Shown here: positions 5,986-62,895 of the stretch, piece after piece
Layout of the letters: each line of letters opens with the position of its first letter
Position numbering within the stretch: position 1 is the first letter of the stretch
NCBI GenBank assembly: GCA_905181955.1
Contig: CAJJAC010000003.1
Span: 38,114-102,113 of the forward strand
Origin: SAR86 cluster bacterium SAR86B
GTDB taxonomy: Bacteria > Pseudomonadota > Gammaproteobacteria > Magnimaribacterales > D2472
Length of the DNA: 64,000 nucleotides
Direction: 5' to 3'
Notes under the pieces: model-generated
Seen by the model: only the letters and a program-made list of their open reading frames with translations
Databases searched by the model: none
Told to the model about the DNA's origin: nothing
Program-made: the position numbers and the translations under genes

Positions 5986-6142
5986 CTACTGAGCTAATAG
6001 CTCTAGCTCTTAAAACATCTCCAGGCTATAAAAGCTTTAAACCAAGTTTTCTCTTATTTAAAGTAGTAACTCTTTTATATGTTTTAAATAAATTCATATT
6101 AATGTTATCGTCTTTGTAGATATATTTTTTAATAGGTAAATT

Positions 6143-6532: not shown

Positions 6533-6538
6533 GAGTTT

Positions 6539-7711
6539 TTAATAAGCTATATAAGCAGCAACATTCCAGAAGTTAAATTCTGTTTCTGTTGTGATCTGAG
6601 CATCTGGAATAAAGATGCTTAGTTCATGCCTACCTTTTTCTAATTTACCCAAACTAATTTTCTTTGGTGAGACTTGACTGCCTGGGCACCAACCAGATCT
6701 TGAGTAGTCAGATGATGCAATTCGTTCCTCTATTTCTACACCTTTCCATTCAGCAGTCTCAGTCCATACCCCTGAACTTGGATTAAATCTTCTAAAGGCA
6801 GCGCAGTCATCTCTCCATGGAATGAATTCAGCAACAATCTGATTATTCAGACTAACAACATTTGTTTTTTTAACAAACTCATCGCCTGTTCCATGGCCTC
6901 CATGGCCAGTGGTTAGATAGTAAAGAAATACTTCATCAGCATCTGCTTCTAACTCAAAACTAGTTACTAATGGCTCTATACCAAACTGGTCATACCCATT
7001 TTGACCTGCTGAAAAGGGAGTTGTATTGACTAGTGAAACAATATTTTGGCCTTGTGATTGATTGGTCTGAGCAGGCTCAGTAAATTCTATAGCTACATCA
7101 ATATCCCAGCCTTTGTCAGACCAAGTATCTATGAAAACGCCAACCAAAATCTCACCTTTCAAAATTGGTAATAAATGCGTTATATCCTCACTCCAAGAAA
7201 TATCATCTTCCCATTTAGCAATATAAACAGGCTTAAGTTTTTCACAGCATTCCTCAGTATTAAAGTAACCAACTCCAAATGGAGTAATAAACCTTAGAAG
7301 CTCCAAGGGCGGATAATAATTATTATCTTCAAGTAAGAATTTTTGTATACCTGGATATGAATCCATTGGTTCTTTATTAGGAAAACTATTGTTTGCTAAA
7401 TTTAAAACAGAATAATCTGACGAAGTTGGGATAATAAAAAATGATCCTGATTTATCCCACGGGTCTCCAGTTGAAACCAATGTAATGTTTGCATTAGCAT
7501 GGCGATAATTATTATTTGTGGGCAGTTGAATTGTTTTTAAGATCAAGCGTCCAGAGCCAAGAGCAATTGTTTGATCATTCTGCTCTTCAGAGGAAGGTTG
7601 AAAACGAATGCTTTGTTTTTCAAAAACATCAAATGCAATCTTATTATCCAGACTCTCATTTGAGCATGATGCAATAATCAAAAATACAATTAAAAATTTT
7701 AGATTCTTCAT
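6539..7711 (-). CDS. Putative lipoprotein with PNGase F-like (peptide-N-glycosidase F fold) domains
   Basis: 390 aa. N-terminus FLIIASCSN looks like a lipobox. Ordered motif matches to PNGase F as I recall it: GDPWDKSG, RFITPFGVGYF, GHGGHGTGDEF and SGWCPGSQV. The ATG overlaps the dctM stop (ATGA at 7708-7711). Confidence 0.55.
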   Translation of the reverse strand: MKNLKFLIVFLIIASCSNESLDNKIAFDVFEKQSIRFQPSSEEQNDQTIALGSGRLILKTIQLPTNNNYRHANANITLVSTGDPWDKSGSFFIIPTSSDYSVLNLANNSFPNKEPMDSYPGIQKFLLEDNNYYPPLELLRFITPFGVGYFNTEECCEKLKPVYIAKWEDDISWSEDITHLLPILKGEILVGVFIDTWSDKGWDIDVAIEFTEPAQTNQSQGQNIVSLVNTTPFSAGQNGYDQFGIEPLVTSFELEADADEVFLYYLTTGHGGHGTGDEFVKKTNVVSLNNQIVAEFIPWRDDCAAFRRFNPSSGVWTETAEWKGVEIEERIASSDYSRSGWCPGSQVSPKKISLGKLEKGRHELSIFIPDAQITTETEFNFWNVAAYIAY

Positions 7712-9045
7712 AAAACAATACTCGGAAAGATTAATACTAGTATGAGTATTAATAATTGAATCAAGATAAATGGTATTACACCTTTGTATATTTCAGAAGT
7801 TTTAATACTAGCATCAGCAACACCTCTTAAATAAAACAACGAGAATCCAAATGGAGGAGTTAAAAAGGATGTTTGAAGATTAATAGCTAAAAGCACTGCA
7901 AGCCACACCGGATCAAAGCCCATCATTAAAAGCGGCGGGGCTACCAAGGGAACAATAACATAACAAATTTCAATAAAATCTAATATAAACCCAAGCAAGA
8001 AGACTATCAGCAATACAAATATTAAGGCTGCATAAGGTCCACCTGGGATAGCGCTAAAAATAAGCTCAATAAGATCATCGCCGCCCACACCTCTAAAGAT
8101 TAAAGAGAATATAGAGGCGCCTATTAATATAGTAAATATCATTGTGGTAACAATTGCAGTTTTCTCACTGGTTTCTTTCAAGAATCCCAATGTTAGTTTT
8201 CCATTAACCAATGCAATAATCATGGCGCCCATGGCACCAATCGCTGCCGCTTCTGTAGGAGTGGCAATGCCTCCAATAATAGAACCCAACACTAAGACAA
8301 TAAGCATTAGTGGCAGAGCAAGGGTTTTCAATATTTCAGCACTTGGTGGTGATGTTGCATCAGGTGAGAAATAAATATTTGGATTTTTTGAATTTTGATA
8401 AATGGTATACACTAAATATGAAGTACAAATAAGAATTCCAGGAACAATTGCTCCAATAAAAAGATCGCCAACCGTAACTGTTTTTTGAGAGAAGATACCC
8501 ATATTATTTTGAGCTCTTTGATAAGCATTAGACATAACATCACCTAGTAACACGAGAGCAATTGATGGTGGGATGATTTGCCCCAAGGTCCCAGTAGCTG
8601 CAACAAGACCTGTAGAAAAATCTTTTTTATAACCTTGTTGAATTAAAACTGGCAGCGACATTAAACCCATAGTCACAACAGTTGCACCTACTATTCCAGT
8701 GCTAGCTGCCAAAAGGGCACCGACAACAATAATTGAAATACTTAGACCACCGCGAATATTCTTAAAAGCCAATGCCATATTTTCGAGCATTCTTCCGGCA
8801 ATACCAGATCTTTCAAGGATAGTCCCCATAAATATAAACAAAGGCACAGCAAGCAAGGTAACATTATTCATAATCCCAAATATTCTTAAGGGAATGCTCT
8901 TAAATATATTGGGATCAAATATTCCAGCAGGTATACATAGCAAAGAAAAGAGAATTGATACCCCTGCAAGCGTTAACGCAACTGGATAACCCAGCAACAA
9001 TGCACCGCACACTAATACTAATAATAATAGCGGGATTATTTCCAT
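7708..9045 (-). CDS. dctM: TRAP transporter large permease (DctM)
   Basis: 445 aa, polytopic and very hydrophobic, with typical DctM length and N-terminus. Overlaps dctQ by 10 nt. Confidence 0.9.
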   Translation of the reverse strand: MEIIPLLLLVLVCGALLLGYPVALTLAGVSILFSLLCIPAGIFDPNIFKSIPLRIFGIMNNVTLLAVPLFIFMGTILERSGIAGRMLENMALAFKNIRGGLSISIIVVGALLAASTGIVGATVVTMGLMSLPVLIQQGYKKDFSTGLVAATGTLGQIIPPSIALVLLGDVMSNAYQRAQNNMGIFSQKTVTVGDLFIGAIVPGILICTSYLVYTIYQNSKNPNIYFSPDATSPPSAEILKTLALPLMLIVLVLGSIIGGIATPTEAAAIGAMGAMIIALVNGKLTLGFLKETSEKTAIVTTMIFTILIGASIFSLIFRGVGGDDLIELIFSAIPGGPYAALIFVLLIVFLLGFILDFIEICYVIVPLVAPPLLMMGFDPVWLAVLLAINLQTSFLTPPFGFSLFYLRGVADASIKTSEIYKGVIPFILIQLLILILVLIFPSIVL

Positions 9046-23429: not shown

Positions 23430-25244
23430 ATGAACAAATTATTTAGCTTACTTATAACAATATTTATTTTAGTGTCTTGTTCCTCAAACGATTCTGAAAT
23501 TAAAACTATATCTGATGTAGAGTCTTTTCTAGAGAAGGTAGAGCAAGAGAATAAAACTCTTGGACCAGTTGCTTCTTCTGCATCATGGATAAGTTCTAAT
23601 TTTATAACTTACGATTCGCAAAAGATAGCTGCAGATTTTGGTAAACGCTATTCTCTGATTTCAGTAGAAAGAGCAAACGAAGCTGCGACCTTTGATGACC
23701 TAGACCTGCCTGATGAAATGAGAAGAAAACTAAATTTAATAAAAGGTGGTTTTGTTATGCCAGCACCTCTAGACGATGCTTTAGCTGGAGAAATAGCTAA
23801 TATAGAATCTGAACTTGGTGCCATGTATGGATTAGGCAGTCATTGCTTTGATGAAAATGATTGTTATGACCTTGAAGCTTTTGAGCAAATTATAGACTCA
23901 TCAAGAAACCCAGAAGAGCTATTAAAAGCATGGACGGGCTGGAGAGAAATAGGCAAGCCTATGAAGGATAAGTATATGCGCATGGTTGAAATAGGTGACC
24001 TTGGTGCTAGAGACCTAGGCTATGACGGCTTAACTGATTTATGGTTTAGTAAATATGATATGCCTGCTGAAGAGTTCCTTGAAGAGACAGATAGAGTCTG
24101 GGAAGAAGTAAAACCTCTATATGATGCACTTCAATGTCACGTCCGAGAAAAGTTAAATGAACATTATGGGGATGATATTGTTCCTGCCGAAGGAATGCTT
24201 CCTGCTCATGTTCTGGGAAATATGTGGGGCCAATCATGGGCTAACGTATATGATCTAGTTTTTGAAGAAGATCCGAATGCAGTTTCTATTAATTTAACTT
24301 CACTTATCGAAGAAAAAGATTTGACGGAGCGTGAGATGGTTGTGATAGCTGAAGATTTCTTCCTATCTTTAGGATTTGATCCATTACCAGAAACCTTCTG
24401 GGAAAGATCTTTATTTACTAAACCTCAAGATAGAAATGTAGTGTGTCATGCATCAGCATGGAACCTAGACCCAGATAATAACGACTTAAGAATAAAGATG
24501 TGTATACAAAAGAATGAGGAAGATTTTGTAACTATTCATCATGAGTTAGGTCATATTTTTTATTATCAAGCTTATAACGATCTTCCTGGAGTATTTAGAG
24601 GAGGAGCAAATGACGGCTTTCATGAAGCTGTTGGAGATTTATTAGCTTTATCGATTACTCCAGATTATTTAAACCAGATTGGTTTTGTTACTAAGGCTGA
24701 GGCAGAAGCAGCGGAGCAGGACCCAATTGCATTATTAATGAAGCAAGCTTTAGATGGCGTTGTCTCAATTCCATGGACTTTAATGTTAGATAAATGGAGA
24801 TCAGGTATTTTTACTGGTGAAATAACAAAAGAAAACTTAAATTCTAGTTGGTGGGAATTAAGAGAAAAGTATCAAGGCATTACATCTCCAATGGAAAGAG
24901 GTGAAGAGTATTTTGATCCAGGTGCTAAATATCATATTCCTGGTAATACTCCATACACGCGATACTATCTTGCAAAAATTATGCAATACCAGTTCCATGA
25001 ATCATTATGTAACGACATAGGTTTTGAAGGGCCTCTGCATGAGTGTTCAATTTATAATAATCCTGAGGCTGGAGTAAAAATAAGAAATATGCTGGCAATG
25101 GGTCAAAGCAAGCCTTGGCAGGATGCTTTTGAAGCTTTAACTGGAGAAAGAGCTTTAAGCGGAACTTCAATTTTAAATTATTATAAACCTCTTCAAGAAT
25201 GGCTAGAAAAAGAAAATGAAAGCCGTTCATGTGGTTGGGAGTAG
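23430..25244 (+). CDS. M2 family zinc peptidase (angiotensin-converting-enzyme-like peptidyl-dipeptidase A), lipoprotein-like
   Basis: 604 aa. N-terminus ILVSCSS. Zinc site is HHELGHIFYY with the downstream glutamate motif FHEAVGD, as in ACE/M2 peptidases. Confidence 0.85.
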   Translation: MNKLFSLLITIFILVSCSSNDSEIKTISDVESFLEKVEQENKTLGPVASSASWISSNFITYDSQKIAADFGKRYSLISVERANEAATFDDLDLPDEMRRKLNLIKGGFVMPAPLDDALAGEIANIESELGAMYGLGSHCFDENDCYDLEAFEQIIDSSRNPEELLKAWTGWREIGKPMKDKYMRMVEIGDLGARDLGYDGLTDLWFSKYDMPAEEFLEETDRVWEEVKPLYDALQCHVREKLNEHYGDDIVPAEGMLPAHVLGNMWGQSWANVYDLVFEEDPNAVSINLTSLIEEKDLTEREMVVIAEDFFLSLGFDPLPETFWERSLFTKPQDRNVVCHASAWNLDPDNNDLRIKMCIQKNEEDFVTIHHELGHIFYYQAYNDLPGVFRGGANDGFHEAVGDLLALSITPDYLNQIGFVTKAEAEAAEQDPIALLMKQALDGVVSIPWTLMLDKWRSGIFTGEITKENLNSSWWELREKYQGITSPMERGEEYFDPGAKYHIPGNTPYTRYYLAKIMQYQFHESLCNDIGFEGPLHECSIYNNPEAGVKIRNMLAMGQSKPWQDAFEALTGERALSGTSILNYYKPLQEWLEKENESRSCGWE

Positions 25245-26224: not shown

Positions 26225-26983
26225 ATGTTGAAATTACGAGCCATAATAATGTCTCTTGCTTTAATCATTCCATTTGTAGCGAGCGCTACTGATATGGAAG
26301 CAGTGTTAGAAGTAGGCAGAGATAATTCAAACCAATCAGCTGTATCGCAAGATAAAATCGACAGCACAGAAAAGCAAACAGACAAAATTGTAAACGAGTG
26401 GAAGGTTGTCTCTAAGCAAGTCGAAGGCCTAAAGGTTTATAACCAACAAAAAAGAATCCAAATTCAAGCTCAGCTTGATTTGATGGATAAATTAGATGAT
26501 CAGCTAACCCAAGTAGTTGTCATGCAAAGACAAATACCACCTTTAGCCCAAAGAATGCTTGAAGGTCTAGAAAAGTTTGTTGAGCTTGATGTACCTTTCC
26601 ATATTGAAGAAAGAAGACAAAGACTTGATTTAGTAAGAAGTTCTTTATCAAATCCAAAAGTGACAGCTTCAGAGCAAGTAAGACAAATTTTAGAAGCCTA
26701 TAATATTGAGGGTGAGTACGGAAGAAAGATTGATGCTTTTGAATCTTCTATTATTATTGATGGCCAAGAAATAGTAGCTAATGTTTTAGTTATTGGAAGA
26801 ATTGGAATGTTCTATCAAACCAAAGATGAGAGAACTAGCGGTATATGGGATAACGATGCTAACGACTGGATAGAACTAGAAAGTGGTTTTAGAACAGCTA
26901 TTAGAGATGGTATTAGAATGGCTAAAAAATTAGCTCCAACAGATATGTTGATGCTGCCAGTAATCGTTAAGGAGCAAATCTAA
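26225..26983 (+). CDS. DUF3450-type periplasmic coiled-coil protein (TonB2-system TtpB-like)
   Basis: 252 aa with a signal peptide and a coiled-coil-rich sequence. First gene of an ExbB/ExbD/TonB cluster. Its stop overlaps the next start (TAATG). Confidence 0.7.
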   Translation: MLKLRAIIMSLALIIPFVASATDMEAVLEVGRDNSNQSAVSQDKIDSTEKQTDKIVNEWKVVSKQVEGLKVYNQQKRIQIQAQLDLMDKLDDQLTQVVVMQRQIPPLAQRMLEGLEKFVELDVPFHIEERRQRLDLVRSSLSNPKVTASEQVRQILEAYNIEGEYGRKIDAFESSIIIDGQEIVANVLVIGRIGMFYQTKDERTSGIWDNDANDWIELESGFRTAIRDGIRMAKKLAPTDMLMLPVIVKEQI

Positions 26984-28377
26984 TGAAATTTTTAAATTTA
27001 TTTTATTTCGTATTAATTGTTACGTTTTCTGCTCCATCTTTTGCACAAGATGCTGATGATGCAAGCGTTGATCAAGAACCAACCACTGTCGAAGCACTTT
27101 TAGCACTTGTTAAAGAAGGTAAAGTTAAAGAACAAGCAGAAAATAACAAAAGAGAAGCAACCTTCTTAGCAAGCAAGAATAAGCAAGCTAGTATTTTAGC
27201 TGCTGAAAAAAGAGAACTTGCTAGGCAAGAAAAAATTGCAGACAAATTAGAGGCTGAATATAAATCAAACCAAGAAATTCTTAGAGTTAAAGAAGATGCT
27301 TACAAGAAAGAGCTTGGTTCATTGGTCGAATTATTTGGTCACATACAAAGTTCAGCTGGAGAAGCCTCATCAATGTTTGCTGGTTCACTTACTTCTGCTC
27401 AATTTGGACTTGAAAGAGTTTCATTTTTAAATGGCCTTACCGGCAAAATGTCAGAAACAACTGAGCTACCTACTATTAAAGAAATAGAGCGTTTATGGTA
27501 CGAACTTCAAAATGAAATGATTGCTGGTGGAAATGTAGTTAAATTCAATACTACTGTTATTGATGTTGATGGCGAAACTTCTGAATGTGAAGTTACCAGA
27601 GTAGGTTTATTTAATGCTGTTTGTGATGGTAAATATCTTGAATTTGCATCATCTAAAGGGCAGTATGCCTTTCTTCCAAGACAACCAGCTGGAAGATATA
27701 CAAAGAGTGCTAAGAATTTAGGAAATGCTGAAGGTGGCGAACAGGTTAAGTTTGGAGTTGATCCAACTGGACCTACAGGTGGAAGCTTATTAGCAAACCT
27801 TATACAAACTCCTTCTATGGCAGAAAGAGCAAAGCAAGGTAAAGAAGTTGGAGCAGCAATTATTGTTGTAGGTATTATTGGTATTGCAATAGCTTTCTGG
27901 AAACTTTACAGCTTATATATGGTTAGTGTAGCTGTTACTAGGCAGACTAAATCCAAAACTGCATCATCAGATAATCCTTTAGGAAGGGTTCTTAAAGTAG
28001 GAGAAGCTAACTTTAAGAAAGATATAGATACATTAGAACTTCGTTTAGCTGAAGCAATCATGGCGGAAAGGCCTTCGATTGAGAGAGGCATAAGTGTTGT
28101 AAGAATAATCTCGGTTGTAGCTCCGTTAGCCGGTCTACTTGGAACTGTTACAGGCATGATTGTGACATTCCAACAGATTACACTTTACGGTACTGGAGAT
28201 CCTAAGCTAATGGCTGGTGGTATTTCACAAGCATTAGTTACAACAGTTCTAGGCCTATTAGTTGCTATCCCAACAACTCTTCTTCATTCATTTACTGCAT
28301 CGTCAGCTAAAGGAATTATTTGTATTTTAGAAGAACAGAGTACTGGTATATTGGCTGAGCATTCTGAAACTAGCTAG
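26983..28377 (+). CDS. Long MotA/TolQ/ExbB-family proton channel protein with periplasmic N-terminal extension (TtpC-like)
   Basis: 464 aa. Signal peptide, then about 280 aa of charged coiled-coil region, then a C-terminal 3-TM MotA/ExbB core (APLAGLLGTVTGMI...GISQALVTTVLGL). Confidence 0.8.
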   Translation: MKFLNLFYFVLIVTFSAPSFAQDADDASVDQEPTTVEALLALVKEGKVKEQAENNKREATFLASKNKQASILAAEKRELARQEKIADKLEAEYKSNQEILRVKEDAYKKELGSLVELFGHIQSSAGEASSMFAGSLTSAQFGLERVSFLNGLTGKMSETTELPTIKEIERLWYELQNEMIAGGNVVKFNTTVIDVDGETSECEVTRVGLFNAVCDGKYLEFASSKGQYAFLPRQPAGRYTKSAKNLGNAEGGEQVKFGVDPTGPTGGSLLANLIQTPSMAERAKQGKEVGAAIIVVGIIGIAIAFWKLYSLYMVSVAVTRQTKSKTASSDNPLGRVLKVGEANFKKDIDTLELRLAEAIMAERPSIERGISVVRIISVVAPLAGLLGTVTGMIVTFQQITLYGTGDPKLMAGGISQALVTTVLGLLVAIPTTLLHSFTASSAKGIICILEEQSTGILAEHSETS

Positions 28378-38897: not shown

Positions 38898-39958
38898 ATT
38901 ACAATTTTACCTTTTCTCATAAATGGTGGCGATACTATTTCTACTTTAAATTCATTATTTCTTATTTGAACTTTTCCTTCACCATTATGGCCTTTATCTA
39001 TCCTTGCAAATGCAATACTAAATCCAAAAGAAGGAGAAAAAGTACCACTTAATATCTCTCCGCCACCAGAATCATGTTCAATCATTTGATGTGATCTAAG
39101 AATTCCTTTATCTCTTAAGATAATTCCTTTTAATTCTTTACAAGCGGTTTGATCAATTTTTAACAGAGCAGATTTACCAATAAAGTTTCTATCTATATCC
39201 TTAAAATCCAATGTCCATGCAAGGTTTGATTCATAGGGGTGATTAGCTGAATCCATATCAGTGCCATATAGATTTAATCCAGCTTCTAGTCTAAGAGTAT
39301 CTCTAGCCCCAAGTCCTATAGGCACTGCTCCTGCATCAATAAGGTTAGCCCATAGAGATTTTACGTTAGCATTATCAATTACTATCTCAAATCCTTCTTC
39401 GCCTGTGTACCCAGTTTTAGCTACCATCATTGAATTAACATTTGTGACGTCAAAATCATTCATCTCATCAAGACCATTCATATCAATACTCTTTAAAATA
39501 TTGCCCGAATTGGGCCCCTGAACAGCAATAATTGAAAAATTATTCATAAATTCTATATTCACATCATAATTATCAGATTGCTTAGTAAACCAACCATGGT
39601 TCTGAGAGCAGGTAGCACAATTTGAGATTATTCTGTAATGATCTCCTAGATTATAGACAATCAAGTCATCTAAAATTCCTCCAGCTTCATTTAGTAGTGG
39701 ACTATAAAGAGCTCTTCCAGGAGTGTTAATTTTTTGAACATCATTAGGTAAAAGATTTTTAAGGAATTTTTCTTGCTCAGGTCCACTTAAATCAAATACA
39801 GACATATGAGATACATCAAATATACCAACATTAGATCTAACAATTTTATGTTCATTAATTTGCGAGCCATAGTTTATTGGCATACTCCAGCCACCAAAAT
39901 CTACCATCTTTGCACCAAGCTTGATGTGCATGTCATATAGCGTTGTTTTATTCATCAC
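38894..39958 (-). CDS. gcvT: Aminomethyltransferase, glycine cleavage T protein
   Basis: 354 aa. Motifs are GWSMPINYGS, GIFDVSHM and TGYTGEEGFEI. Overlaps gcvH by 4 nt. Confidence 0.95.
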   Translation of the reverse strand: MMNKTTLYDMHIKLGAKMVDFGGWSMPINYGSQINEHKIVRSNVGIFDVSHMSVFDLSGPEQEKFLKNLLPNDVQKINTPGRALYSPLLNEAGGILDDLIVYNLGDHYRIISNCATCSQNHGWFTKQSDNYDVNIEFMNNFSIIAVQGPNSGNILKSIDMNGLDEMNDFDVTNVNSMMVAKTGYTGEEGFEIVIDNANVKSLWANLIDAGAVPIGLGARDTLRLEAGLNLYGTDMDSANHPYESNLAWTLDFKDIDRNFIGKSALLKIDQTACKELKGIILRDKGILRSHQMIEHDSGGGEILSGTFSPSFGFSIAFARIDKGHNGEGKVQIRNNEFKVEIVSPPFMRKGKIVI

Positions 39959-41493
39959 TGATCCAATCTTTTGTTTAAAAAATATACCAAGACAAAGCTC
40001 AGCATTACTAATAAAAGGCTTGGATTAGCAGCTAGCTCCCATTGGCCCTCACTAGTAAAGTTATAAATTTTTGATGAAAGAGTTTCAAAACCTACAGGTC
40101 TAAGAATTAAGGTAGCTGGCTGTTCTTTTACTACTTCAATAAATACCACTAAGAATGCTACCAATAGCGCAGGCTTTAATGACGGCAAGTAAAGAGAAAT
40201 AAAAGCCTTCAATGGGTTAGAGGGAAGGGTCGCAAGAGCTTGTTTGCTAGATTCAGGAATATTATCCAGCGCAGAGACTAGATACTGAAAAGCTGGAGTC
40301 ATAAATCTTATAGAAAGACATATAATTAAACCAAAAATACCCAAGGAAGTAATAGATACTCCAAATATTTCATTTACTACTATGAGAAGACCTACAGCAA
40401 TAACAGATCCCGGCAATGCATAGCCTATTGTTGAAATAGTAATAATACTTTTCATTTTATTAGAGCCATTATAAGCAAGAGATAAAACCAATGCGGTAAT
40501 TATAATAAGTAAGGCTGTTATAAATCCAAGAAATCCAGAGTTTATAAAAAGTGTAATATTTGAGCTAGATAAGAAAACTTCTTTTAAATCACTCCATATT
40601 ATTAATTGAATAAGCGGAAGACCGAAGGCAACTAGAAATAATAAAGAGCATGCTGATGTACTGATAATACCTAGTGTTTTATTTAAAGAGATCTTATCAA
40701 AAGAGTCATTAGAAATAGATCCAACTTTTTTGGAGTCTGTTAATTTTCTGCTTAATAAAAGCAGAAGGACTACAAATGTAAATAAAATACCTGCTAATCG
40801 AGCTCCGCTGAAATAATCTTGATATCCAAACCATGCGTTATAGATTGCTACAGTAAAAGTTTCAATTCTAAGTGTTGAAACTCCTCCAAAATCTGCAAGG
40901 GTTTCCAGCATAGCTAGAATCATTCCAGCAATAATAGCGGGCTTCAGGGCTGGTAATAGAACTGTTTTTATAACAGTTAGATCTGATTTTCCTAGAGTTT
41001 TTGCTGCTTTAAATAACGGGACACCTAAATGCTTAATTTGAGCTTTCATTAAAAGAAAAATATAAGGATACAGAGCCAATGACATTATTAATGATGCCCC
41101 AAGAATATTCCTTACCGAGGGCATAATGATCCCAATTTCTCTTAACCATGTTGCTAAAGGACCAGAGTATTCAAGACCGCCAACAAAAATAAATGCATAA
41201 ATATATGCAGGAAACGCAAGAGGTAAACTTAAGGACCAGCTAAAAAAATTATGGCCTGGAAATTTATAAAGGCTTGTTAAGATTGCAAAAGGTGCAGCAA
41301 TAATAAAAGTAAAGAATCCAACCAAAATAGTTAAAGAAACAGTATTAATCAATAATTTTGATATAAGAGCTGATGTGAGAAAGGATTCAGATACATCTTG
41401 AAGGAATGCTAAACCCAAGAAGGCTATAAAAAAAACTATAGAGAAGCCAACCCATGGAATTGAAAGATATCTCCAAATTTTTAAATGCTCCAT
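39955..41493 (-). CDS. Two-domain ABC permease, Fe(3+)-type (FbpB/HitB-like)
   Basis: 512 aa, about 12 TM segments, with two EAA-type loops (AAKTLGKSDLTVIKTVLLPALKP, and EVVKEQPATLILRP matching the FbpB-type ELPATLLLRP motif). No ATPase or binding-protein gene is adjacent. Confidence 0.75.
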   Translation of the reverse strand: MEHLKIWRYLSIPWVGFSIVFFIAFLGLAFLQDVSESFLTSALISKLLINTVSLTILVGFFTFIIAAPFAILTSLYKFPGHNFFSWSLSLPLAFPAYIYAFIFVGGLEYSGPLATWLREIGIIMPSVRNILGASLIMSLALYPYIFLLMKAQIKHLGVPLFKAAKTLGKSDLTVIKTVLLPALKPAIIAGMILAMLETLADFGGVSTLRIETFTVAIYNAWFGYQDYFSGARLAGILFTFVVLLLLLSRKLTDSKKVGSISNDSFDKISLNKTLGIISTSACSLLFLVAFGLPLIQLIIWSDLKEVFLSSSNITLFINSGFLGFITALLIIITALVLSLAYNGSNKMKSIITISTIGYALPGSVIAVGLLIVVNEIFGVSITSLGIFGLIICLSIRFMTPAFQYLVSALDNIPESSKQALATLPSNPLKAFISLYLPSLKPALLVAFLVVFIEVVKEQPATLILRPVGFETLSSKIYNFTSEGQWELAANPSLLLVMLSFVLVYFLNKRLDQ

Positions 41494-44564: not shown

Positions 44565-44789
44565 ATGAACAAAACTGAAAAGACTGCTTTTAGAGAAGCA
44601 ATAATAATTGTAATGATGGGTTGTATTATTAACTTCCCACTTCAAACATTCTTATTATGGTTAACTATTGATCAGTGGTCCTGGACTAACACGGTGACTA
44701 TCTCACTCTTTACCCAAGCAATCCTTACTTTTGTTGCCCTCTTAAGGGTATATTCAATTCGTATGAGATTCCAAAGAGGTAAATTTTAA
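44565..44789 (+). CDS. Hypothetical small membrane protein (2 TM)
   Basis: 74 aa with two hydrophobic segments and a basic C-terminus. AAGGA lies 8 nt upstream of the ATG. No family recognised. Confidence 0.4.
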   Translation: MNKTEKTAFREAIIIVMMGCIINFPLQTFLLWLTIDQWSWTNTVTISLFTQAILTFVALLRVYSIRMRFQRGKF

Positions 44790-44797
44790 AAAATTTC

Positions 44798-45985
44798 TTA
44801 TAAAGATCTCAAAGCATCAGTAATATTTTGTCTAGCTGCATTAAGTGCAGGTAAAAAACCTCCAATAAAACCAACTATTAATGCGAGAATAAGACCCTGC
44901 ATTATAATTTCACCAGTTACTGCAAAATCAAATGATGTTTGACTAAATGTGCCCCCTGCAAGTGTTGAGACTGTGTATCCATTGAATACTACATAAGCTA
45001 AACCAGCGCCTAAGAGGCCTCCAGAAAGAGCTAGAACCATAGATTCCATCATTAAGGCTGCAAGTATAGAGCTTCCTCTAAATCCAACAGCCCGCAGTGT
45101 CCCAATTTCAACCAACCGAGTAGATACTGCGCTATACATAGAATTCAATGCAGCAAAGATCGAACCAATAGCCATAATAATAGCCACTAAATATCCAAAG
45201 CTATTAATAATTCCAGACACTCCTGATGCTTGATTCTTATAAAAATCTAGTTCATTTTCAACTTTTACTTCGAGCCTTGGGTCATTTTCTATAAAGATAG
45301 CAAATTCATCAAAACTTGATACTGACTCTAATCTTGCTATTGCGTTCGATGTAGATGCTCCGCGCTGAAAAGCAGACTGTGCTACCTTCACATCAGCCCA
45401 AACTTCAGATTCATGAACATCTCCATCAGTACTAAAAACTCCCACTACAGTCCATGCAGCATTTCTAAAAGTTACCTTATTACCTAGCTCAACTCCTTCA
45501 TATTGATCATAAGCTCCTCTTCCAACAATAATTTCTGCTCTACCAGGCTCAAAGTTTCTTCCTTTAATAATCTTGGTTTCAGGTCTAACAGCAAAACTCA
45601 TAGCATCCACGCCTCTTAATGGAAGGTTTGAAGTGTCATCTGCACCTTTCTTTTTAAGGTCTACAACCGTATAGACTTCAAATGCAATCATTGGTTCATT
45701 ATTCAATTGTCTTAAACCGGGAGCATTAGCCATAACATTTGCTTCTTCTATTGAAATTACACTACTTAACTCAGAAGAGGACCCTGATCTTAAGATCATA
45801 GCTCTATCTGCTTCTCCAGTTCCCTCAACAGTTGATTGCAATCCACTGGCCATAGCTAATAAAGATACCATTACCGCAACCGAACCAGCTATTCCAATAA
45901 TAACAACTAAGGAAGAACCAAAACGTTGTGTTATTGATAACAAATTCATATTTGTTACTGCCAATACTTGTCTAAACCACTTCAT
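44798..45985 (-). CDS. ABC transporter permease, FtsX/MacB-type (DevC-like), third permease of operon
   Basis: 395 aa. TM1, a large periplasmic domain, then a C-terminal 3-TM FtsX domain (RLVEIGTLRAVGFRGSSIL...ITDALRSL). Confidence 0.8.
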   Translation of the reverse strand: MKWFRQVLAVTNMNLLSITQRFGSSLVVIIGIAGSVAVMVSLLAMASGLQSTVEGTGEADRAMILRSGSSSELSSVISIEEANVMANAPGLRQLNNEPMIAFEVYTVVDLKKKGADDTSNLPLRGVDAMSFAVRPETKIIKGRNFEPGRAEIIVGRGAYDQYEGVELGNKVTFRNAAWTVVGVFSTDGDVHESEVWADVKVAQSAFQRGASTSNAIARLESVSSFDEFAIFIENDPRLEVKVENELDFYKNQASGVSGIINSFGYLVAIIMAIGSIFAALNSMYSAVSTRLVEIGTLRAVGFRGSSILAALMMESMVLALSGGLLGAGLAYVVFNGYTVSTLAGGTFSQTSFDFAVTGEIIMQGLILALIVGFIGGFLPALNAARQNITDALRSL

Positions 45986-45987
45986 AA

Positions 45988-47148
45988 TTAATCCTTTTTA
46001 AGAGCATCTACGACTTTCAATCTCATTGCGCCCAAAGCAGGCGGAAAACCACTAATAAATGCAGTAATAATAGCTATACCAAGTCCTGAGAGAATAACTG
46101 ATACATCTAATGAAATCTCTCCTAGAGATACAGAAACCATTTCCGATAGAGCTGGCATCATTAGTGCTGTAATGCCTAGCCCTAATAATGCTCCAATAAT
46201 ACAAAGAACAAGTGATTCAATTAATACCAAGTTCATAACCGTCATATCAGAAAAGCCTATAGTTTTAAAGACAGCAAGTTCAGAGGTTCTTTCTCTAATA
46301 GACTGACTCATAGTGTTGCCTGTCACTAGTAATATTGTAAAAAACACAGCTGCAAGTATCGCATTCATTATAAAACCTATATCACCAATCTGGCTTGCAA
46401 ACATCTGTTGATACGCCTTTTCTGTTGATGTCTTTGTTTCATCCATTGAGTTTGCAAACATTGCATCTATTTCTTTTGCAACTCTTGGGCCATCATTTTT
46501 GTCTGATAACTTAACTATAAAATTACCAACTACACCTCTTCTCATCTCCTCTCTAGCCTCATCAAAATATTTATAATTTAAAAATACCTGATCTTCATTG
46601 CCTGGATTTTCAGAATCTATAAAAGTACCAACTAAATCAAATTCCCATAAATTAGTTCCGTCATTTAAGAAATATATATCTCCAATAATTGGAATTCTAT
46701 CTCCTATCTTCCATCCAAATCTGTCTATTATTTTTTGTCCTGCGATCATGCCCGTTCTCGTTGAAATAAAGGCTTCTTTATGCTGATCACTGATTTTAAA
46801 TTCTTCATAGATATCTAAGAATTCTTTGGGAGGTACTGGCCATTTTGGAAAAAAATTAGCTCTATCTATGTAAGTTCCACCAAACCAATCTTGGTGAGCA
46901 ACAATTTCAACACCCTCAATACCTTTAATTCTTTGTAAATAAGAAATAGGCATAGAATCAATAATAGAATATTTAGAAGCTACTACTAATCTGTCATCAC
47001 CAGATAAATCTACATCCTCTGTAAAAATTACTGCAACTGATCTTAAAAGACCAAATAATAAGAAAGCTATTACAAGTGAAGAGATGGTTAAGCCTGTTCG
47101 CCATTTCTTTCTTTTTAAAGCAGCCAGAATAATTATCCAATATTTCAT
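45988..47148 (-). CDS. ABC transporter permease, FtsX/MacB-type, second permease
   Basis: 386 aa. Clear paralog of the 47151-48302 product: shared N-terminus pattern, TGNTMSQSIRERTSELAVFKTIGF, and C-terminal LKVVDALKKD. Confidence 0.8.
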   Translation of the reverse strand: MKYWIIILAALKRKKWRTGLTISSLVIAFLLFGLLRSVAVIFTEDVDLSGDDRLVVASKYSIIDSMPISYLQRIKGIEGVEIVAHQDWFGGTYIDRANFFPKWPVPPKEFLDIYEEFKISDQHKEAFISTRTGMIAGQKIIDRFGWKIGDRIPIIGDIYFLNDGTNLWEFDLVGTFIDSENPGNEDQVFLNYKYFDEAREEMRRGVVGNFIVKLSDKNDGPRVAKEIDAMFANSMDETKTSTEKAYQQMFASQIGDIGFIMNAILAAVFFTILLVTGNTMSQSIRERTSELAVFKTIGFSDMTVMNLVLIESLVLCIIGALLGLGITALMMPALSEMVSVSLGEISLDVSVILSGLGIAIITAFISGFPPALGAMRLKVVDALKKD

Positions 47149-47150
47149 AT

Positions 47151-48302
47151 TTATCCTTTCGCCAAAGCATCTACTACTTTTAATTTATAAGCTTGATAAG
47201 CAGGAAGAATTCCAGCAAGAGAGGCCATGAGAACTCCAATTAAAATACCTTTCATTACTTGATAGGTGTCAAAGACAATGATCCCCCCAGTAAGACCACC
47301 GCTTGCTTGGTCTATAAATGGAATTGTTATGAGTGTTAATATCAGGCCAAATAATGCTCCTAACAGAATAATAAAATTACTCTCTAGAAGTATCGAAATA
47401 AATATTTGCATATCCCTATAGCCTAGACTTTTAAGAATGGCTAAATCGCTTGTTCTCTCTCTTACTGATTGACTCATAGTGTTTGCAGTTACTAAAAGTA
47501 ATGTAAAAAATACTGCAGAAATAATAGCTGTAATTATTAATTTAATATTTCCAATATCCGATAACATTTTTTGAGATAAAGTAATTTCGTTTCCAGTAAA
47601 GGTTGCATATGCTGAGTTCTTATAATTATCATCAATAATATTGCTTATTTCATCAGCTTTTGAAGGATCATCTAGATTAAACAGTATCATTGATACAGTA
47701 CCTTTATTAGCAATTCTTGCCTCTTCTACATACTCATTTCGGACCATAAGACCAAGCTCATCTGCAGCAGGGCTTGTTGTATAAATTCCTTCTATTACAA
47801 ATTCCCATACATTTGATCCATCATTCTTTTTTGAAAAAGTTGGTATTGAAATAAGATCACCAACCTTCCAGCCTTTTAAGTCTGCGGCAGTTTTACCTGC
47901 AAGGGCACCTCTTTTATTTGAAAAGAAAGCCTTCTTTGCCTCAGGTGAAGCTTCAAACCTATCCATAACCTTGAAGTAATCTTTACTTATAGCAAATATA
48001 GGAATATTTTCAGTAATGGAATTTATATCCATTGAAAGCATATCTAACCATGCAATATTTGTAACACCCTCTAAAGATTCTAAGTAATTGATATGTGATT
48101 GTGGCAATCTGCCAAACATCATGTCGTGTTTAGGCATAATAATCATTCGCTCTGCATTAATTTCACCAGCAGCTCCTGAAAATAATGGATCAGCTGAATG
48201 AAGCAAACCATAAAGAAAAAAGGCTATAACAACAGATAAGATTGTTAGAAGACTTCTCATCTTCTTTCTAACAACGCCTGCTTTAACTAGAACCCAGTAC
48301 AC
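47151..48302 (-). CDS. ABC transporter permease, FtsX/MacB-type, first permease
   Basis: 383 aa. Contains TANTMSQSVRERTSDLAILKSLGY and C-terminal LKVVDALAKG. Has the TM1, periplasmic domain, 3-TM layout. Confidence 0.8.
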   Translation of the reverse strand: MYWVLVKAGVVRKKMRSLLTILSVVIAFFLYGLLHSADPLFSGAAGEINAERMIIMPKHDMMFGRLPQSHINYLESLEGVTNIAWLDMLSMDINSITENIPIFAISKDYFKVMDRFEASPEAKKAFFSNKRGALAGKTAADLKGWKVGDLISIPTFSKKNDGSNVWEFVIEGIYTTSPAADELGLMVRNEYVEEARIANKGTVSMILFNLDDPSKADEISNIIDDNYKNSAYATFTGNEITLSQKMLSDIGNIKLIITAIISAVFFTLLLVTANTMSQSVRERTSDLAILKSLGYRDMQIFISILLESNFIILLGALFGLILTLITIPFIDQASGGLTGGIIVFDTYQVMKGILIGVLMASLAGILPAYQAYKLKVVDALAKG

Positions 48303-48304
48303 GA

Positions 48305-48982
48305 TTAAGTTGTTAACTTACCTTTATCTAAGTGAAGTGATCGCTTGGCAGAGTCTGCAGCAGCAGGGTCATGAGTAACCATTAATATAGTTTTTCCATG
48401 ATCCTCATTTAAGCTCTTTAAAAGATTAAGAATATCTGTTGCAGTATTCCTATCTAAATCGCCCGTAGGCTCATCACACACCAAAATATCAGGATCTGAG
48501 ACTAATGCCCTGGCAATGGCTACTCTTTGCTGCTGACCACCTGAAAGCTCGCTTGGCTTATGCCCAGATCTATCAGACAAACCAACGATACTTAAAGCAG
48601 TTTCAACATGTTTTTTTCTTTCAGAGCTAGATAAATTAGTTAAAAGGAGGGGGAGCTCTATATTCTTCTGAGCTGTCAAGACTGGAAGCAGATTGTAGAA
48701 TTGGAATATAAAGCCAACATTACCTGCTCTCCAATTGCTCAATTGTTTTGAATTCATTTGGTCGATTCTTTCACCATTAATAGATACCGAGCCACTTGAT
48801 GGCGTATCTAAACCTCCTATAAGGTTAAGAAGAGTCGATTTTCCAGATCCTGACGGCCCCATTAAAGCTAAAAAGTCTTGCTTAGGAATCTCTAAATTAA
48901 GATCATCCAAAACAATTAAAGTCTCCCCACCACGTTTATATTCTTTGGAAAGGTTTTTAACATCTACTAATATTTCTGACAT
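48305..48982 (-). CDS. ABC transporter ATP-binding protein (MacB/LolD-type)
   Basis: 225 aa. Walker A is GPSGSGKSTLLN, the signature is LSGGQQQRVAIARAL, and Walker B is ILVCDEPTGDLD. Confidence 0.9.
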   Translation of the reverse strand: MSEILVDVKNLSKEYKRGGETLIVLDDLNLEIPKQDFLALMGPSGSGKSTLLNLIGGLDTPSSGSVSINGERIDQMNSKQLSNWRAGNVGFIFQFYNLLPVLTAQKNIELPLLLTNLSSSERKKHVETALSIVGLSDRSGHKPSELSGGQQQRVAIARALVSDPDILVCDEPTGDLDRNTATDILNLLKSLNEDHGKTILMVTHDPAAADSAKRSLHLDKGKLTT

Positions 48983-48990
48983 ATTACTTC

Positions 48991-50136
48991 CTATTTAATT
49001 AGAACTTCTTGACCATTCTCAAGATCATTGCTTGGATCTGTAACTACATTATCACCAGCTATAACTCCATTGATTAACCTACTGAAATTTGAGGATGAAC
49101 TTCCAACACTAACTTTAGTTTTCGTTAGCAAACCATTTTTAATAACAAATACATAAGATAAATTACCTTCTTTTATAACAGAAGACGATGGGACCATTAC
49201 TCCTTCAAGTTTTTTTGGAGCTTTATTCATTTGTTCCTTTAAAAATGAAACTTTTGCACCCATATCAGGTAGCACTCTTTCATCCTTTTCTAATAATCCT
49301 ATCCTTACTTTAACAGTGGCTTTATTTCTATCAGCAGTAGGAATGATTGCTATAACTTCAGAGGCTATATCCCAATTTGGGTACGCATTAAGATTTGTTA
49401 TAGCAGGTTGACCTGCTTGAACTCTATTGATGTATGACTCATTCACATCAACCTCAACTTCTAAAGAGCTCATATCAACGATAGTCCCTATACCTGTTCT
49501 AGTGAAGCCACCACCAGCAGAAACTGGAGAAATCATTTCGCCTGGCTGCGCAGCTTTATTTATTACAACACCAGAGAAAGGGGCACGTATCTGCATGTCT
49601 GCAACTATCTGCTTACTAATATCCAACCTTGCTTTTAATCCGTCTACCTGAGATTCAGCTGCATCTAATGATGCCTGGCTGGCAAGATTATCTTTTCTTA
49701 GCTCTAAAGTTCTATTAAAAATTCTTCGAGCTTCTTTTAATTGAGTTTTAGCAAAATTTAACTCTGCTTGGACCGTACTATCATCAAGTTGAGCCAATAT
49801 CTGATTTTTTTCAACAAACATACCTTCTTCTATATAGACTTCTAATACTTTGCCAGTAATTTTAGATGAAACTGTCGCTTGCATTCTAGCTGTCACATAT
49901 CCAGAAGCATCTAATACGCTAGCAGCAGCATTATCTGACTGATTAGCTGATTTAGCTGTATAAGTATTAACTTCTATAAGCTCATCTTCGGATAAGAAAA
50001 CCAATTGGACAAAAGTAAGCGCAATAACTAGCGCAACAGTAGCTAATAAAAATTTTGTTACTAAAGAGCCTTCAGATTTATTGTTTTCTGATCGATCAAT
50101 CTTTAAATCATTTAAAAGATCTTTTTTATCACTCAT
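48991..50136 (-). CDS. Periplasmic adaptor (membrane fusion protein, HlyD/MacA family)
   Basis: 381 aa. N-terminal TM anchor, coiled-coil hairpin region, and lipoyl/beta-barrel motifs (ITGKVLEVYIEEGMFVEKNQILAQLD). AAGGAG lies upstream of the ATG. Confidence 0.85.
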   Translation of the reverse strand: MSDKKDLLNDLKIDRSENNKSEGSLVTKFLLATVALVIALTFVQLVFLSEDELIEVNTYTAKSANQSDNAAASVLDASGYVTARMQATVSSKITGKVLEVYIEEGMFVEKNQILAQLDDSTVQAELNFAKTQLKEARRIFNRTLELRKDNLASQASLDAAESQVDGLKARLDISKQIVADMQIRAPFSGVVINKAAQPGEMISPVSAGGGFTRTGIGTIVDMSSLEVEVDVNESYINRVQAGQPAITNLNAYPNWDIASEVIAIIPTADRNKATVKVRIGLLEKDERVLPDMGAKVSFLKEQMNKAPKKLEGVMVPSSSVIKEGNLSYVFVIKNGLLTKTKVSVGSSSSNFSRLINGVIAGDNVVTDPSNDLENGQEVLIK

Positions 50137-50185: not shown

Positions 50186-51034
50186 TTAAAGATTATGATT
50201 TTTGCTTTTGTTTAAATTCCACTCAGGAGGGCCAAAAAAAGAATTAAATCGCTCATTTGAATTAGCTGAGTTTTTAAAGTCTTCAATCATTTTAATCCAA
50301 TTCATAAATGTAATTTTTATAGGATTAAAAGTTTTAACATTTTCAGTTATTCCAAATGTAACTTTATTTTTCTCTTTAGCAAAAGTTCCAAAGACTCTGT
50401 CCCAGACAATAAACATATTTCCATAATTTTTATCAATGTACTCTGGGTTGGAGGCGTGATGAACTCTATGGGAGGAGGGTGTAACAAATACATATTCAAG
50501 AATCCCAAGAGTTCTGATGGATTGAGTATGGCCTGTAATGCCCCATAAGGTTGCTGCTGCTCCAGCCAAAGCGGTAATTAAAGGATCAAAGCCTATAAGA
50601 GGAAGTACTAAGAAAAAAGGAACTTTAGTTATAGGACCAAACCAAGCTTGACGAAGAGCTACAGTGAAATTCATTTCTTCACTAGAATGATGATTCATAT
50701 GTACAGCCCACATGAATCTAACTCTATGAGAAAATCTGTGATACCAATAGAAAACAAAATCTATAACTAAGAATGTAAGGATCCACACAGTTGCTGATGA
50801 AAACATTTCATTAATAGTAAATATACGAAACTCATATAAATAAAAATAGAAAAATATAATTGAACCCTTAGTCCCTATATTTACAATAATATTGCCAGCT
50901 AAGAGCCCAAATCCAGCCATACTGTCATCAAGCTTATATAAAGAAAGATTATTAATTTTTGAATAAATAGTTTCAGCAATAATCATGCTAATAACAATAG
51001 GGATGCCGTAGGTATATAAGTTTATATCGGTCAT
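50186..51034 (-). CDS. Fatty acid hydroxylase / sterol desaturase family membrane protein
   Basis: 282 aa. Histidine boxes are HRFSHR, HMNHHS and HRVHH. Confidence 0.8.
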   Translation of the reverse strand: MTDINLYTYGIPIVISMIIAETIYSKINNLSLYKLDDSMAGFGLLAGNIIVNIGTKGSIIFFYFYLYEFRIFTINEMFSSATVWILTFLVIDFVFYWYHRFSHRVRFMWAVHMNHHSSEEMNFTVALRQAWFGPITKVPFFLVLPLIGFDPLITALAGAAATLWGITGHTQSIRTLGILEYVFVTPSSHRVHHASNPEYIDKNYGNMFIVWDRVFGTFAKEKNKVTFGITENVKTFNPIKITFMNWIKMIEDFKNSANSNERFNSFFGPPEWNLNKSKNHNL

Positions 51035-61515: not shown

Positions 61516-62895
61516 TTATAATCCCAATTCTTTTATTTTCTTACTTAGGGTGTTTCTTCCCCACCCTAGTAATATAGCTGCTTCATTTTTACGACCATTG
61601 GTTTTATCAAGAGCTGTTTGTATTAATATTTTATCAAGCTTAGGCCCAACAATATCTAGTAAATCAGAATCCTTGGTATCAGATAAGTCTTTTAACCATA
61701 ATGCTAGACCTCTCTCCCAATCCAATGATGCTTCTGATTCTACAATTTCATGATCTTTTATTTCACTTGGTAAATCTTCAACTTTTATATTTTGAGTTGG
61801 AGACATTAATGTTAACCAATAACAAATATTTTCTAACTGTCGCACATTGCCTGGCCAATCATATTTTTCTAAATACTCTAACGCTTCCTTGCTAAGAACT
61901 CTTAACTCCTCTCCAAGAGAATCAGAGTGCATTTTTAAAAATGCTGTTGCGAGTAACTTAATATCATCGATCCTTTCTTTTAGTTTTGGGACTTCAATTC
62001 TTATAACATTTAATCTATAAAATAAGTCTTCTCTAAACCTTGAAAGGCTCACAAGGCTATGGAGATCTTGGTGTGTGGCAGCCAAAATTCTTACATCTAC
62101 CTTTATGGGCTTATCTCCACCAACTCTATAAAATTCTTTATTAGACAAAACTCTAAGTAATCTTGTTTGGCACTCTAAAGGCATATCCCCAATCTCATCT
62201 AAGAATAATGTTCCACCGTTAGCTTGCTCAAATCTCCCTATTCTTCTATCTACAGCTCCAGTGAAAGCTCCTTTCTCATGCCCAAATAATTCAGATTCAA
62301 CAAGTTCTTTTGGTATATCTGCCATATTTAATGCAACAAAAGGCATGTCATATCTAGGACTATTTTTATGCAATGATTTAGCAATAAGCTCTTTGCCAGT
62401 TCCTGACTGACCCTGAATAAGAACCGTAGCATTAGTATTAGCTAACTTACCTATAGCTCTAAATACCAACTGCATCGATGACGCTTTACCAATAATCTCA
62501 GAAGATGGTTTGACTTTAAGGCCTTTAGTTTTAGGTTTTCCTTCTAAGGCACGATTCATAATCTCTATCGCCTCATCTAGATCAAAAGGTTTTGGCATAT
62601 ATTCAAATGCTCCGCCTCCATATGAATCAATTGCAGCCTGCATGTCTGTAAAAGCAGTCATTATAATCACTGGTATGTGATCAAAATTATCATTAATATG
62701 TTTCAGCAAGTCATATCCATGAGTTCCTGGCATTTTTATATCAGTAATGATTAAGTCAGGTTGATCGGTTTTAAGCTGTTCTATTAAGCTATCAGCATTT
62801 GAGAAAATGCTCGTTAGAAAACCAGCGCTTTTCAAGCTTTCTTCTAACACCATTCTGATTGCTTCATCATCATCAGCTACCCAAATTTTATGCAT
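61516..62895 (-). CDS. ntrC: Sigma-54-dependent nitrogen response regulator NtrC
   Basis: 459 aa. Receiver domain (DLIITDIKMPG), AAA+ domain (GQSGTGKE, the sigma-54 contact motif GAFTGA, and RFREDLFYRLNV), and a C-terminal HTH. Overlaps ntrB. Confidence 0.9.
   Translation of the reverse strand: MHKIWVADDDEAIRMVLEESLKSAGFLTSIFSNADSLIEQLKTDQPDLIITDIKMPGTHGYDLLKHINDNFDHIPVIIMTAFTDMQAAIDSYGGGAFEYMPKPFDLDEAIEIMNRALEGKPKTKGLKVKPSSEIIGKASSMQLVFRAIGKLANTNATVLIQGQSGTGKELIAKSLHKNSPRYDMPFVALNMADIPKELVESELFGHEKGAFTGAVDRRIGRFEQANGGTLFLDEIGDMPLECQTRLLRVLSNKEFYRVGGDKPIKVDVRILAATHQDLHSLVSLSRFREDLFYRLNVIRIEVPKLKERIDDIKLLATAFLKMHSDSLGEELRVLSKEALEYLEKYDWPGNVRQLENICYWLTLMSPTQNIKVEDLPSEIKDHEIVESEASLDWERGLALWLKDLSDTKDSDLLDIVGPKLDKILIQTALDKTNGRKNEAAILLGWGRNTLSKKIKELGL

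Follow-up and report, generated by a model that had tools for sequence, protein, structure and literature searches.

We describe a five-gene operon encoding a MacB-type ATP-driven export pump on a 64,000-nt stretch of DNA (the window) from a SAR86 cluster gammaproteobacterium. Its genes specify, in order, a periplasmic adaptor, an ATP-binding cassette (ABC) ATPase and three FtsX/MacB-type permeases, here called P1, P2 and P3, and the closest genome loci are those of SAR86 single-cell genomes and metagenome-assembled genomes (MAGs; 84-85% P1 identity). The operon is a lineage-specific three-permease variant of a widespread module with the order adaptor-ATPase-P2-P3, that is, a modest variation and not a new type of system. 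What is new is a third paralog, P1, that is fixed in SAR86 and has a diverged periplasmic domain, whereas a two-permease tripartite pump, VarACDEF, was already known. Our best explanation of the whole, to which we give roughly an even chance, is an adaptor-coupled exporter built on a P2/P3 heterodimer, with P1 as an alternative partner of P3.

At least 596 loci with a P1/P2-type permease came up when one genome per species was scanned, and the best 80 of these were annotated with 10-kb flanks by BLAST against the window proteins, 65 of them being non-SAR86 loci that are complete on both sides. We observe that in 63 of these 65 loci a P3-type gene comes directly after a P2-type gene, so that two unlike permeases sharing one ATPase and one adaptor are common and constitute the norm of the family. 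The clean order adaptor-ATPase-P2-P3 is found in at least 53 of the 65, and several of the remaining loci are artefacts of open reading frame (ORF) calling in high-GC DNA. The module occurs in Xanthomonadales (Lysobacter and Stenotrophomonas maltophilia, for example CP158958.1), Cellvibrionaceae, Woeseiaceae, Verrucomicrobiota and Acidobacteriota, and the same four genes are present on beta- and alphaproteobacterial secondary replicons of Caballeronia, Burkholderia, Rhizobium and Tritonibacter, those of Caballeronia and Tritonibacter being plasmids. Window P2 is 40-48% identical to the module permease right after the ATPase and window P3 is 38-46% identical to the gene that closes the module; the adaptor shares 40-47% identity with module adaptors of other phyla and the ATPase 57-68% with module ATPases elsewhere. 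Judged by their sequences, P2 and P3 are orthologs of the first and the second (MacB-like) permease of the module, respectively, and the operon belongs to this module family. A baseline of one permease per pump, the implied premise of the initial annotation of this DNA, is thus not the appropriate one, since the two-permease order is common across phyla and only the extra P1 is special.

Two further arrangements bear on the P2-P3 pair. In a Nevskiaceae MAG (locus L012; DASRHK010000033.1, 5671-12338) the order is adaptor-ATPase-P2-P3-P2-P3, with four FtsX-type permeases for one ATPase and one adaptor, and the joint duplication of P2 and P3 therefore points to the pair as a functional unit. Furthermore, three Verrucomicrobiota loci carry P2-P3 without an adjoining adaptor or ATPase. 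The names that PGAP gives to the module proteins are generic (efflux RND transporter periplasmic adaptor subunit, ABC transporter ATP-binding protein and, twice, ABC transporter permease), and we found no functional study of the P2/P3 module or of a three-permease MacB-type system in the literature searched, a search that was not exhaustive. A Cupriavidus match to "two permeases" in the literature concerns an unrelated glycerol importer, and SbiAB and MacABCsm of S. maltophilia are pumps of another, fused type. Comparative genomics of S. maltophilia has described a conserved pump of ATPase, permease and membrane fusion protein with no known substrate (PMC4607518), which may be the same locus.

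On the Tritonibacter mobilis plasmid NZ_CP110386.1 (1-12648; locus L086), the four-gene module lies within a cluster that includes two AMP-binding enzymes, a cytochrome P450, a flavin/halogenase-like protein, an LLM oxidoreductase, an acyl-CoA dehydrogenase and a PPTase, a context that suggests export of a secondary metabolite in this species.

The five-gene order with P1 is seen only in SAR86, and there in every locus long enough to judge, namely in genomes L001, L003-L006 (divergent subclades) and L081 (a further subclade) and in 10 metagenome contigs of the window's subclade. With respect to how often a layout of adaptor, ATPase and three FtsX-type permeases recurs, which the initial annotation had proposed to survey, the restriction to SAR86 stands, but the surprise is smaller because the two-permease form is already widespread and a tripartite pump with two permeases has been characterised before. 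One marine metagenome contig of the window's subclade (L101) has a truncated P2 ORF (3842-4726) and a 280-nt gap before P3, which may be an error (of assembly or a frameshift) or else a genuine pseudogene.

A neighbor-joining (NJ) tree of 88 P1/P2-type proteins, rooted with P3 and with 100 bootstraps, recovered the SAR86 P1 proteins as monophyletic in 100/100 replicates and the SAR86 P2 proteins in 67/100, with P1 branches about twofold longer (0.8-1.0 against 0.36-0.44). P1 is most likely a tandem duplicate of P2 that arose in the SAR86 stem lineage, a placement with moderate support, because P1 and SAR86 P2 are monophyletic in 72/100 replicates and share two derived residues (control-group mean 0.2, maximum 1).

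The divergence of P1 is asymmetric and localised to the periplasmic domain. In 75 non-SAR86 P2-type proteins, 87 columns reach a conservation of 90% or more; of these, SAR86 P2 keeps 87% and P1 69%, and 11 are altered in all P1 orthologs and kept in P2, with no column showing the reverse pattern. Five of the 11 (W, F, G, G and Y) make up the periplasmic WFGGxY motif (P1 positions 87-92), which P1 has lost. In line with this, identity to the outgroup in the periplasmic domain is 25% for P1 versus 41% for P2, compared with 38-41% versus 43-44% in the transmembrane (TM) region. Between SAR86 subclades, P1 also evolves faster than any other component, with 42-44% identity, followed by P2 (52-60%), the adaptor (59-63%), P3 (61-63%) and the ATPase (76-79%).

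All three permeases are nevertheless intact, full-length MacB-fold proteins, and a degenerate permease, which the initial annotation had named as a possible weakness of its interpretation, can be ruled out, given that all three have a coupling helix and four TM segments with dN/dS ratios of 0.05-0.07 and that P1 has a complete fold. In each, four hydrophobic segments follow the MacB order, with TM1 separated from TM2-4 by a ~210-aa periplasmic domain, and a cytoplasmic coupling-helix motif comes after TM2 (P1 NTMSQSVRERTSDLAILKSLGY, P2 NTMSQSIRERTSELAVFKTIGF, P3 NSMYSAVSTRLVEIGTLRAVGF). Pfam FtsX (PF02687) matches all three over the gathering score (P1 4.6e-15, P2 6.4e-14, P3 6.2e-12). MacB_PCD is matched by P3 only (1.1e-12); P1 and P2 have no MacB_PCD match in Pfam, and their homologs carry PF12704. 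As initially annotated, P1 and P2 are clear paralogs that share the motifs quoted there and the ending LKVVDAL (BLASTP, 35% identity over the full length, E 2e-73), and P3 is more divergent, with weak BLASTP matches to P1 and P2 (22-32% over parts). The P1/P2 and P3 families are homologous over 332 columns that include the periplasmic domain (hhalign probability 99.6%).

With a pLDDT of 82 from 81 sequences, the AlphaFold2 model of P1 has the complete fold of a type VII ABC permease, and its best solved Foldseek matches are LolE, MacB and Spr0695, at full length with E 1e-13 to 1e-15, and it additionally matches the isolated periplasmic domains 3ftj and 5udf. For P3, the alignment behind the model was shallow (SAR86 sequences only, at least 64% identical), and the model has a pLDDT of 63.6 with a poor membrane part, leaving the periplasmic domain alone usable; this domain matches those of MacB and YknZ with TM-scores of 0.68-0.70 (normalised to target length), and the best PDB matches of P3 are MacB (5gko) and Spr0695 (5xu1). 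By sequence, no solved structure is nearer than E ~1e-8. Taken as a set, the permeases show every defining feature of the MacB/FtsX (type VII) ABC superfamily and are members of it.

The adaptor matches Pfam HlyD_D23 (4.9e-25) and also HlyD_3, passes the RND_mfp model TIGR01730 (177 bits vs a 94.9 cut-off) and has a single N-terminal TM helix, with a hydropathy peak at residues 30-48. The ATPase is a MacB/LolD/FtsE-type nucleotide-binding subunit (Pfam ABC_tran 6.3e-36) with intact motifs (Walker A GPSGSGKST, signature LSGGQQQR, Walker B ILVCDE, H-loop THD), and its top NCBIfam matches are LolD, YbbA, DarD, DevA, FtsE and the MacB nucleotide-binding domain (NBD), each under the equivalog cut-off. 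None of the operon proteins reaches the curated equivalog models for MacB/MacA, LolC/E/D, DevC/B/A, FtsX, YbbP or DarB.

The five genes are co-directional on the minus strand, as had been annotated, with gaps of 8, 2, 2 and 2 nt in gene order. These short junctions (2-8 nt), together with the absence of terminator-like sites inside the operon in a terminator scan, lead us to regard the genes as a single real operon; the promoter and terminator scans were uninformative, promoter-like matches being rarer than in shuffles. Against the orthologs in the SAR86 genome L001 (84-88% amino acid identity), dN/dS is 0.05-0.09 across all five genes (P1 0.067, P2 0.055, P3 0.051), figures that are rough because synonymous sites are close to saturation, and all five genes are under purifying selection. 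A comparison of start codons and ribosome-binding sites gave no consistent sign of weak P1 translation, the GTG start of P1 being confined to the window's subclade and ATG being used elsewhere.

Among characterised systems, VarACDEF of Vibrio cholerae (VC1563, VC1565-VC1568) comprises the adaptor VarA, the outer-membrane factor (OMF) VarC, the permeases VarD and VarE, which are two separate MacB-type proteins with four TM segments and large periplasmic domains, and the separate ATPase VarF; it needs TolC or VarC and confers macrolide resistance (PMC5595328). The SAR86 operon is like it, compared by layout and description, in combining an adaptor, a separate ATPase and distinct MacB-type permease genes, but it has three permeases where Var has two, and it is without an OMF gene, whereas Var carries VarC, a LysR regulator and a metallo-beta-lactamase alongside. 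The assertion that characterised relatives work only as homodimers (MacB, DevC) or as the LolCE heterodimer had overlooked this two-permease tripartite pump (PMC5595328).

The likeness to MacAB-TolC of Escherichia coli and Acinetobacter baumannii lies in the permease fold (Foldseek E 1e-13 to 1e-16 to 5gko and 5nik), in the N-terminal TM anchor of the adaptor and in an operon that, as in E. coli macAB, has no OMF gene. In contrast, MacB is a homodimer of a fused NBD and transmembrane domain (TMD), while the SAR86 operon has a separate NBD of 225 aa and three TMD genes, and the scores to the MacB (NF007826, 32-38 bits for the permeases, cut-off 966) and MacA (46 vs 342) equivalogs are far under the cut-offs. 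With LolCDE the operon shares a separate ATPase and paralogous MacB-fold permeases, which in Lol form an ATPase dimer and a heterodimer, and LolE is the top Foldseek match of P1 and LolD the top NCBIfam match of the ATPase. Lol, however, has no membrane-fusion adaptor, and the SAR86 operon is headed by an adaptor gene; with this adaptor present and scores that fall short for LolC/E (TIGR02212; 43.5, 29.9 and 25.3 bits for the permeases, cut-off 362) and LolD (241 bits, cut-off 307.75), identity with the Lol system is ruled out. DevBCA and HgdBC likewise combine an adaptor, a separate ATPase and a MacB-fold permease and work with TolC, but they have one permease, and the DevC, DevB (TIGR02971, 46 vs 129) and DevA (TIGR02982, 215 vs 295.8) models are far under cut-off. 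The earlier description of P3 as DevC-like did not hold, as its TIGR01185 score is 25.7 bits (P2 29.2, cut-off 290) and MacB and Spr0695 are its closest matches in both sequence and fold. The unnamed four-gene module agrees with the operon in its four components, their order and their tight junctions, and SAR86 differs from it in the P2-derived P1 inserted between ATPase and P2. A "macrolide efflux" system listed for all SAR86 genomes by Dupont et al. (PMC3358033) probably corresponds to the present operon, an entry annotated by homology only.

MacB-fold transporters place two permease units on two NBDs and work by mechanotransmission to their periplasmic domains, and the adaptor-coupled members expel periplasmic or outer-leaflet substrates via a TolC-type duct (PMC5985334, PMC8277102). 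Under this known architecture of two TMDs to two NBDs, three permeases with one ATPase and one adaptor require alternative assemblies, as the initial annotation had reasoned. We infer a type VII (MacB/FtsX-fold) ABC exporter that would work with a hexameric-type periplasmic adaptor, and presumably with a TolC-like duct encoded elsewhere, and that would use mechanotransmission to expel an amphiphilic substrate present in the periplasm or in the outer leaflet of the inner membrane. The inherited core would consist of two ATPase subunits with a permease of each type, P2 and P3, in a heterodimer comparable to LolCE or VarDE, since the adjacency of P2 and P3 is near-obligate across phyla and the Nevskiaceae locus has duplicated the two jointly. 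In the SAR86 lineage, the P2 gene would have been tandem-duplicated, with the upstream copy becoming P1, which would keep the TM and coupling-helix parts that dock on the ATPase and the partner permease, while its periplasmic, substrate-facing domain would have been remodelled. Because P1 would descend from a P3-partnering protein and combines conserved membrane and ATPase-docking parts with a remodelled periplasmic domain, the most parsimonious view is that it most probably replaces P2 as an alternative partner of P3, giving isoforms P1-P3 and P2-P3 that would have the ATPase and the adaptor in common and be distinguished by what their periplasmic domains handle. The more specific proposal that P1 and P2 are interchangeable partners of P3, with two MacB-type isoforms of different periplasmic specificities on one ATPase dimer and adaptor hexamer, is one that we put forward tentatively.

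Several points weigh against this explanation. The grouping of P1 with SAR86 P2 in the NJ tree has moderate bootstrap support, the shared derived residues number just two, and the identity of P1 to SAR86 P2 (35%) is not above that to some non-SAR86 P2 proteins (33-37%). Two Verrucomicrobiota loci, L007 (ATPase-P2) and L021 (adaptor-ATPase-P2), have no nearby P3-type gene, so P2-type homodimers may be viable, although these are only 2 of the 65 loci. The confidence of the P3 model is low in its TM part, and the pairing of P1 or P2 with P3 is a deduction. Furthermore, the tripartite arrangement with a TolC-like duct is assumed: in agreement with what had been noted at the outset, no OMF was present among the Pfam-scanned window ORFs of 390-954 aa, and clustering of the flanking ORFs of the 80 annotated loci revealed no OMF beside the module. 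None of these flank clusters occurs in more than 14 loci, and the recurrent ones are sensor kinases, a RarD-like protein, peptidases, beta-lactamase-family hydrolases and spurious high-GC ORFs. A 452-aa gene that follows the module on the Tritonibacter plasmid was considered as an OMF and encodes a flavin/halogenase-like protein instead.

Other assemblies can be weighed against the same evidence. Two transporters might share the ATPase and adaptor, one a P1-P2 heterodimer comparable to LolC/LolE and the other a MacB-like P3 homodimer. P1 and P2 are indeed paralogs whose TM parts are conserved, P3 resembles MacB more than the other two do (its MacB_PCD match and its best PDB matches, the homodimeric MacB and Spr0695), and the two loci with a P2-type gene lacking P3 indicate that contacts between P2-type proteins may exist. 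Outside SAR86, however, there is a single P2-type gene, paired with P3 in 63/65 loci, a P2-type heterodimer cannot be ancestral, and the duplication in L012 carried P2 and P3 jointly, so that we consider this arrangement unlikely, if worth keeping in mind. Three independent homodimeric pumps competing for one ATPase and one adaptor would be in keeping with the homodimeric state of the characterised adaptor-coupled relatives MacB, Spr0695, YknZ and DevC (PMC5985334, PMC8277102) and with the complete folds and coupling helices of all three proteins. The near-obligate co-occurrence of P2 and P3, in fixed order across phyla, is hard to explain if each works alone, and frequent independent loss would be expected, yet P3 is missing in just 2/65 loci; this makes the three-pump possibility a doubtful one. 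If P1 were a duplicate that is mostly redundant or in decay and lacks a role of its own, this would account for its rapid evolution between subclades (42-44% identity) and its loss of 11 family-conserved residues, but we judge such a status very improbable in view of a dN/dS of ~0.07, a full-length and intact gene in every sampled SAR86 subclade despite genome streamlining, the 69% of conserved columns kept, including the coupling-helix motif RERTS-L, and a confident AlphaFold2 model. An exporter with a P2/P3 core and P1 as an alternative partner of P3 is the explanation that we retain.

The features of the locus are listed below. In addition to the operon, we observe a small hydrophobic ORF of ~74 aa (window ~44575-44797, + strand) that converges on the stop codon of P3.

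Features of the SAR86 operon and its upstream neighbour (window coordinates)
Feature	Position	Strand	Remarks
Adaptor (membrane fusion protein)	48991-50136	-	381 aa
ABC ATPase	48305-48982	-	225 aa
P1 permease, FtsX/MacB-type	47151-48302	-	383 aa, GTG start, 2 nt past ATPase stop
P2 permease, FtsX/MacB-type	45988-47148	-	386 aa
P3 permease, FtsX/MacB-type	44798-45985	-	395 aa
Fatty-acid-hydroxylase-family membrane protein	50186-51034	-	Pfam FA_hydroxylase 1.1e-31; neighbour of the operon

With respect to the neighbourhood, a fatty-acid-hydroxylase-family (FAH) gene indeed lies 49 nt upstream of the adaptor gene on the same strand, and every contig of the window's subclade that extends far enough upstream has the synteny ADH-FAH-operon. 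FAH is absent beside the operon in the SAR86 loci L003-L006 and L081 and in all of the 70+ non-SAR86 loci. Directly upstream of the operon, the other SAR86 subclades have a TIGR03805 parallel beta-helix protein together with a TIGR03806 diheme cytochrome of the SO2930 family (L003-L006 ~5858-8160; L081 3085-6162), and RraA, an amidohydrolase and a beta-lactamase-family hydrolase lie downstream on the opposite strand. Since flanking genes differ between SAR86 subclades, the five genes behave like a relocatable block. The hint of a lipid substrate that had been drawn from the hydroxylase is without general support, as the adjacency is limited to the window's subclade. DevBCA, a relative, exports glycolipids. 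Export by the pump of a lipid that the upstream enzyme makes or modifies, for which this relative, the close same-strand spacing and the steady synteny in the window's subclade could be cited, nevertheless strikes us as highly implausible, given the absence of FAH beside the operon in other SAR86 subclades and in the non-SAR86 loci, an OlsE equivalog score of 65 bits against a cut-off of 475, and a promoter-like hexamer pair in the 49 nt between FAH and the adaptor gene, albeit a type of match that shuffles contain more often.

Elsewhere in the window we observe two proteins of eukaryote-associated families, here in a streamlined marine bacterium: a PNGase F-like protein (6539-7711, - strand; N-glycanase_N and _C domains, E ~1e-45) and a peptidase M2/angiotensin-converting-enzyme-like protein (23430-25244, + strand; E 7e-199). 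A 512-aa multi-TM permease that is Fbp-like by eye (39955-41493, - strand), a long MotA/ExbB-family protein of 464 aa (26983-28377, + strand) and a sigma-54 response regulator (61516-62895, - strand) have no link to the operon.

MacB-type pumps have so far been understood from homodimers (MacB) and one heterodimer (LolCE), and the adaptor-coupled module with two unlike permeases is common in at least three phyla (Pseudomonadota, Verrucomicrobiota and Acidobacteriota) and essentially unstudied. The finding alone does not open a long-standing question. SAR86 is among the most abundant, genome-streamlined bacterial groups of the surface ocean, and because the operon is present in every SAR86 subclade sampled, it probably helps these bacteria to cope with toxic or amphiphilic compounds. 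If P1 and P2 can indeed stand in for each other, type VII ABC transporters would have their first example of permeases assembled combinatorially, one fixed across the SAR86 order. Such an assembly would provide a natural system for asking which half of a type VII heterodimer sets substrate choice, and it would mean that a streamlined genome widens its range of exported compounds by one gene and not by a whole pump.

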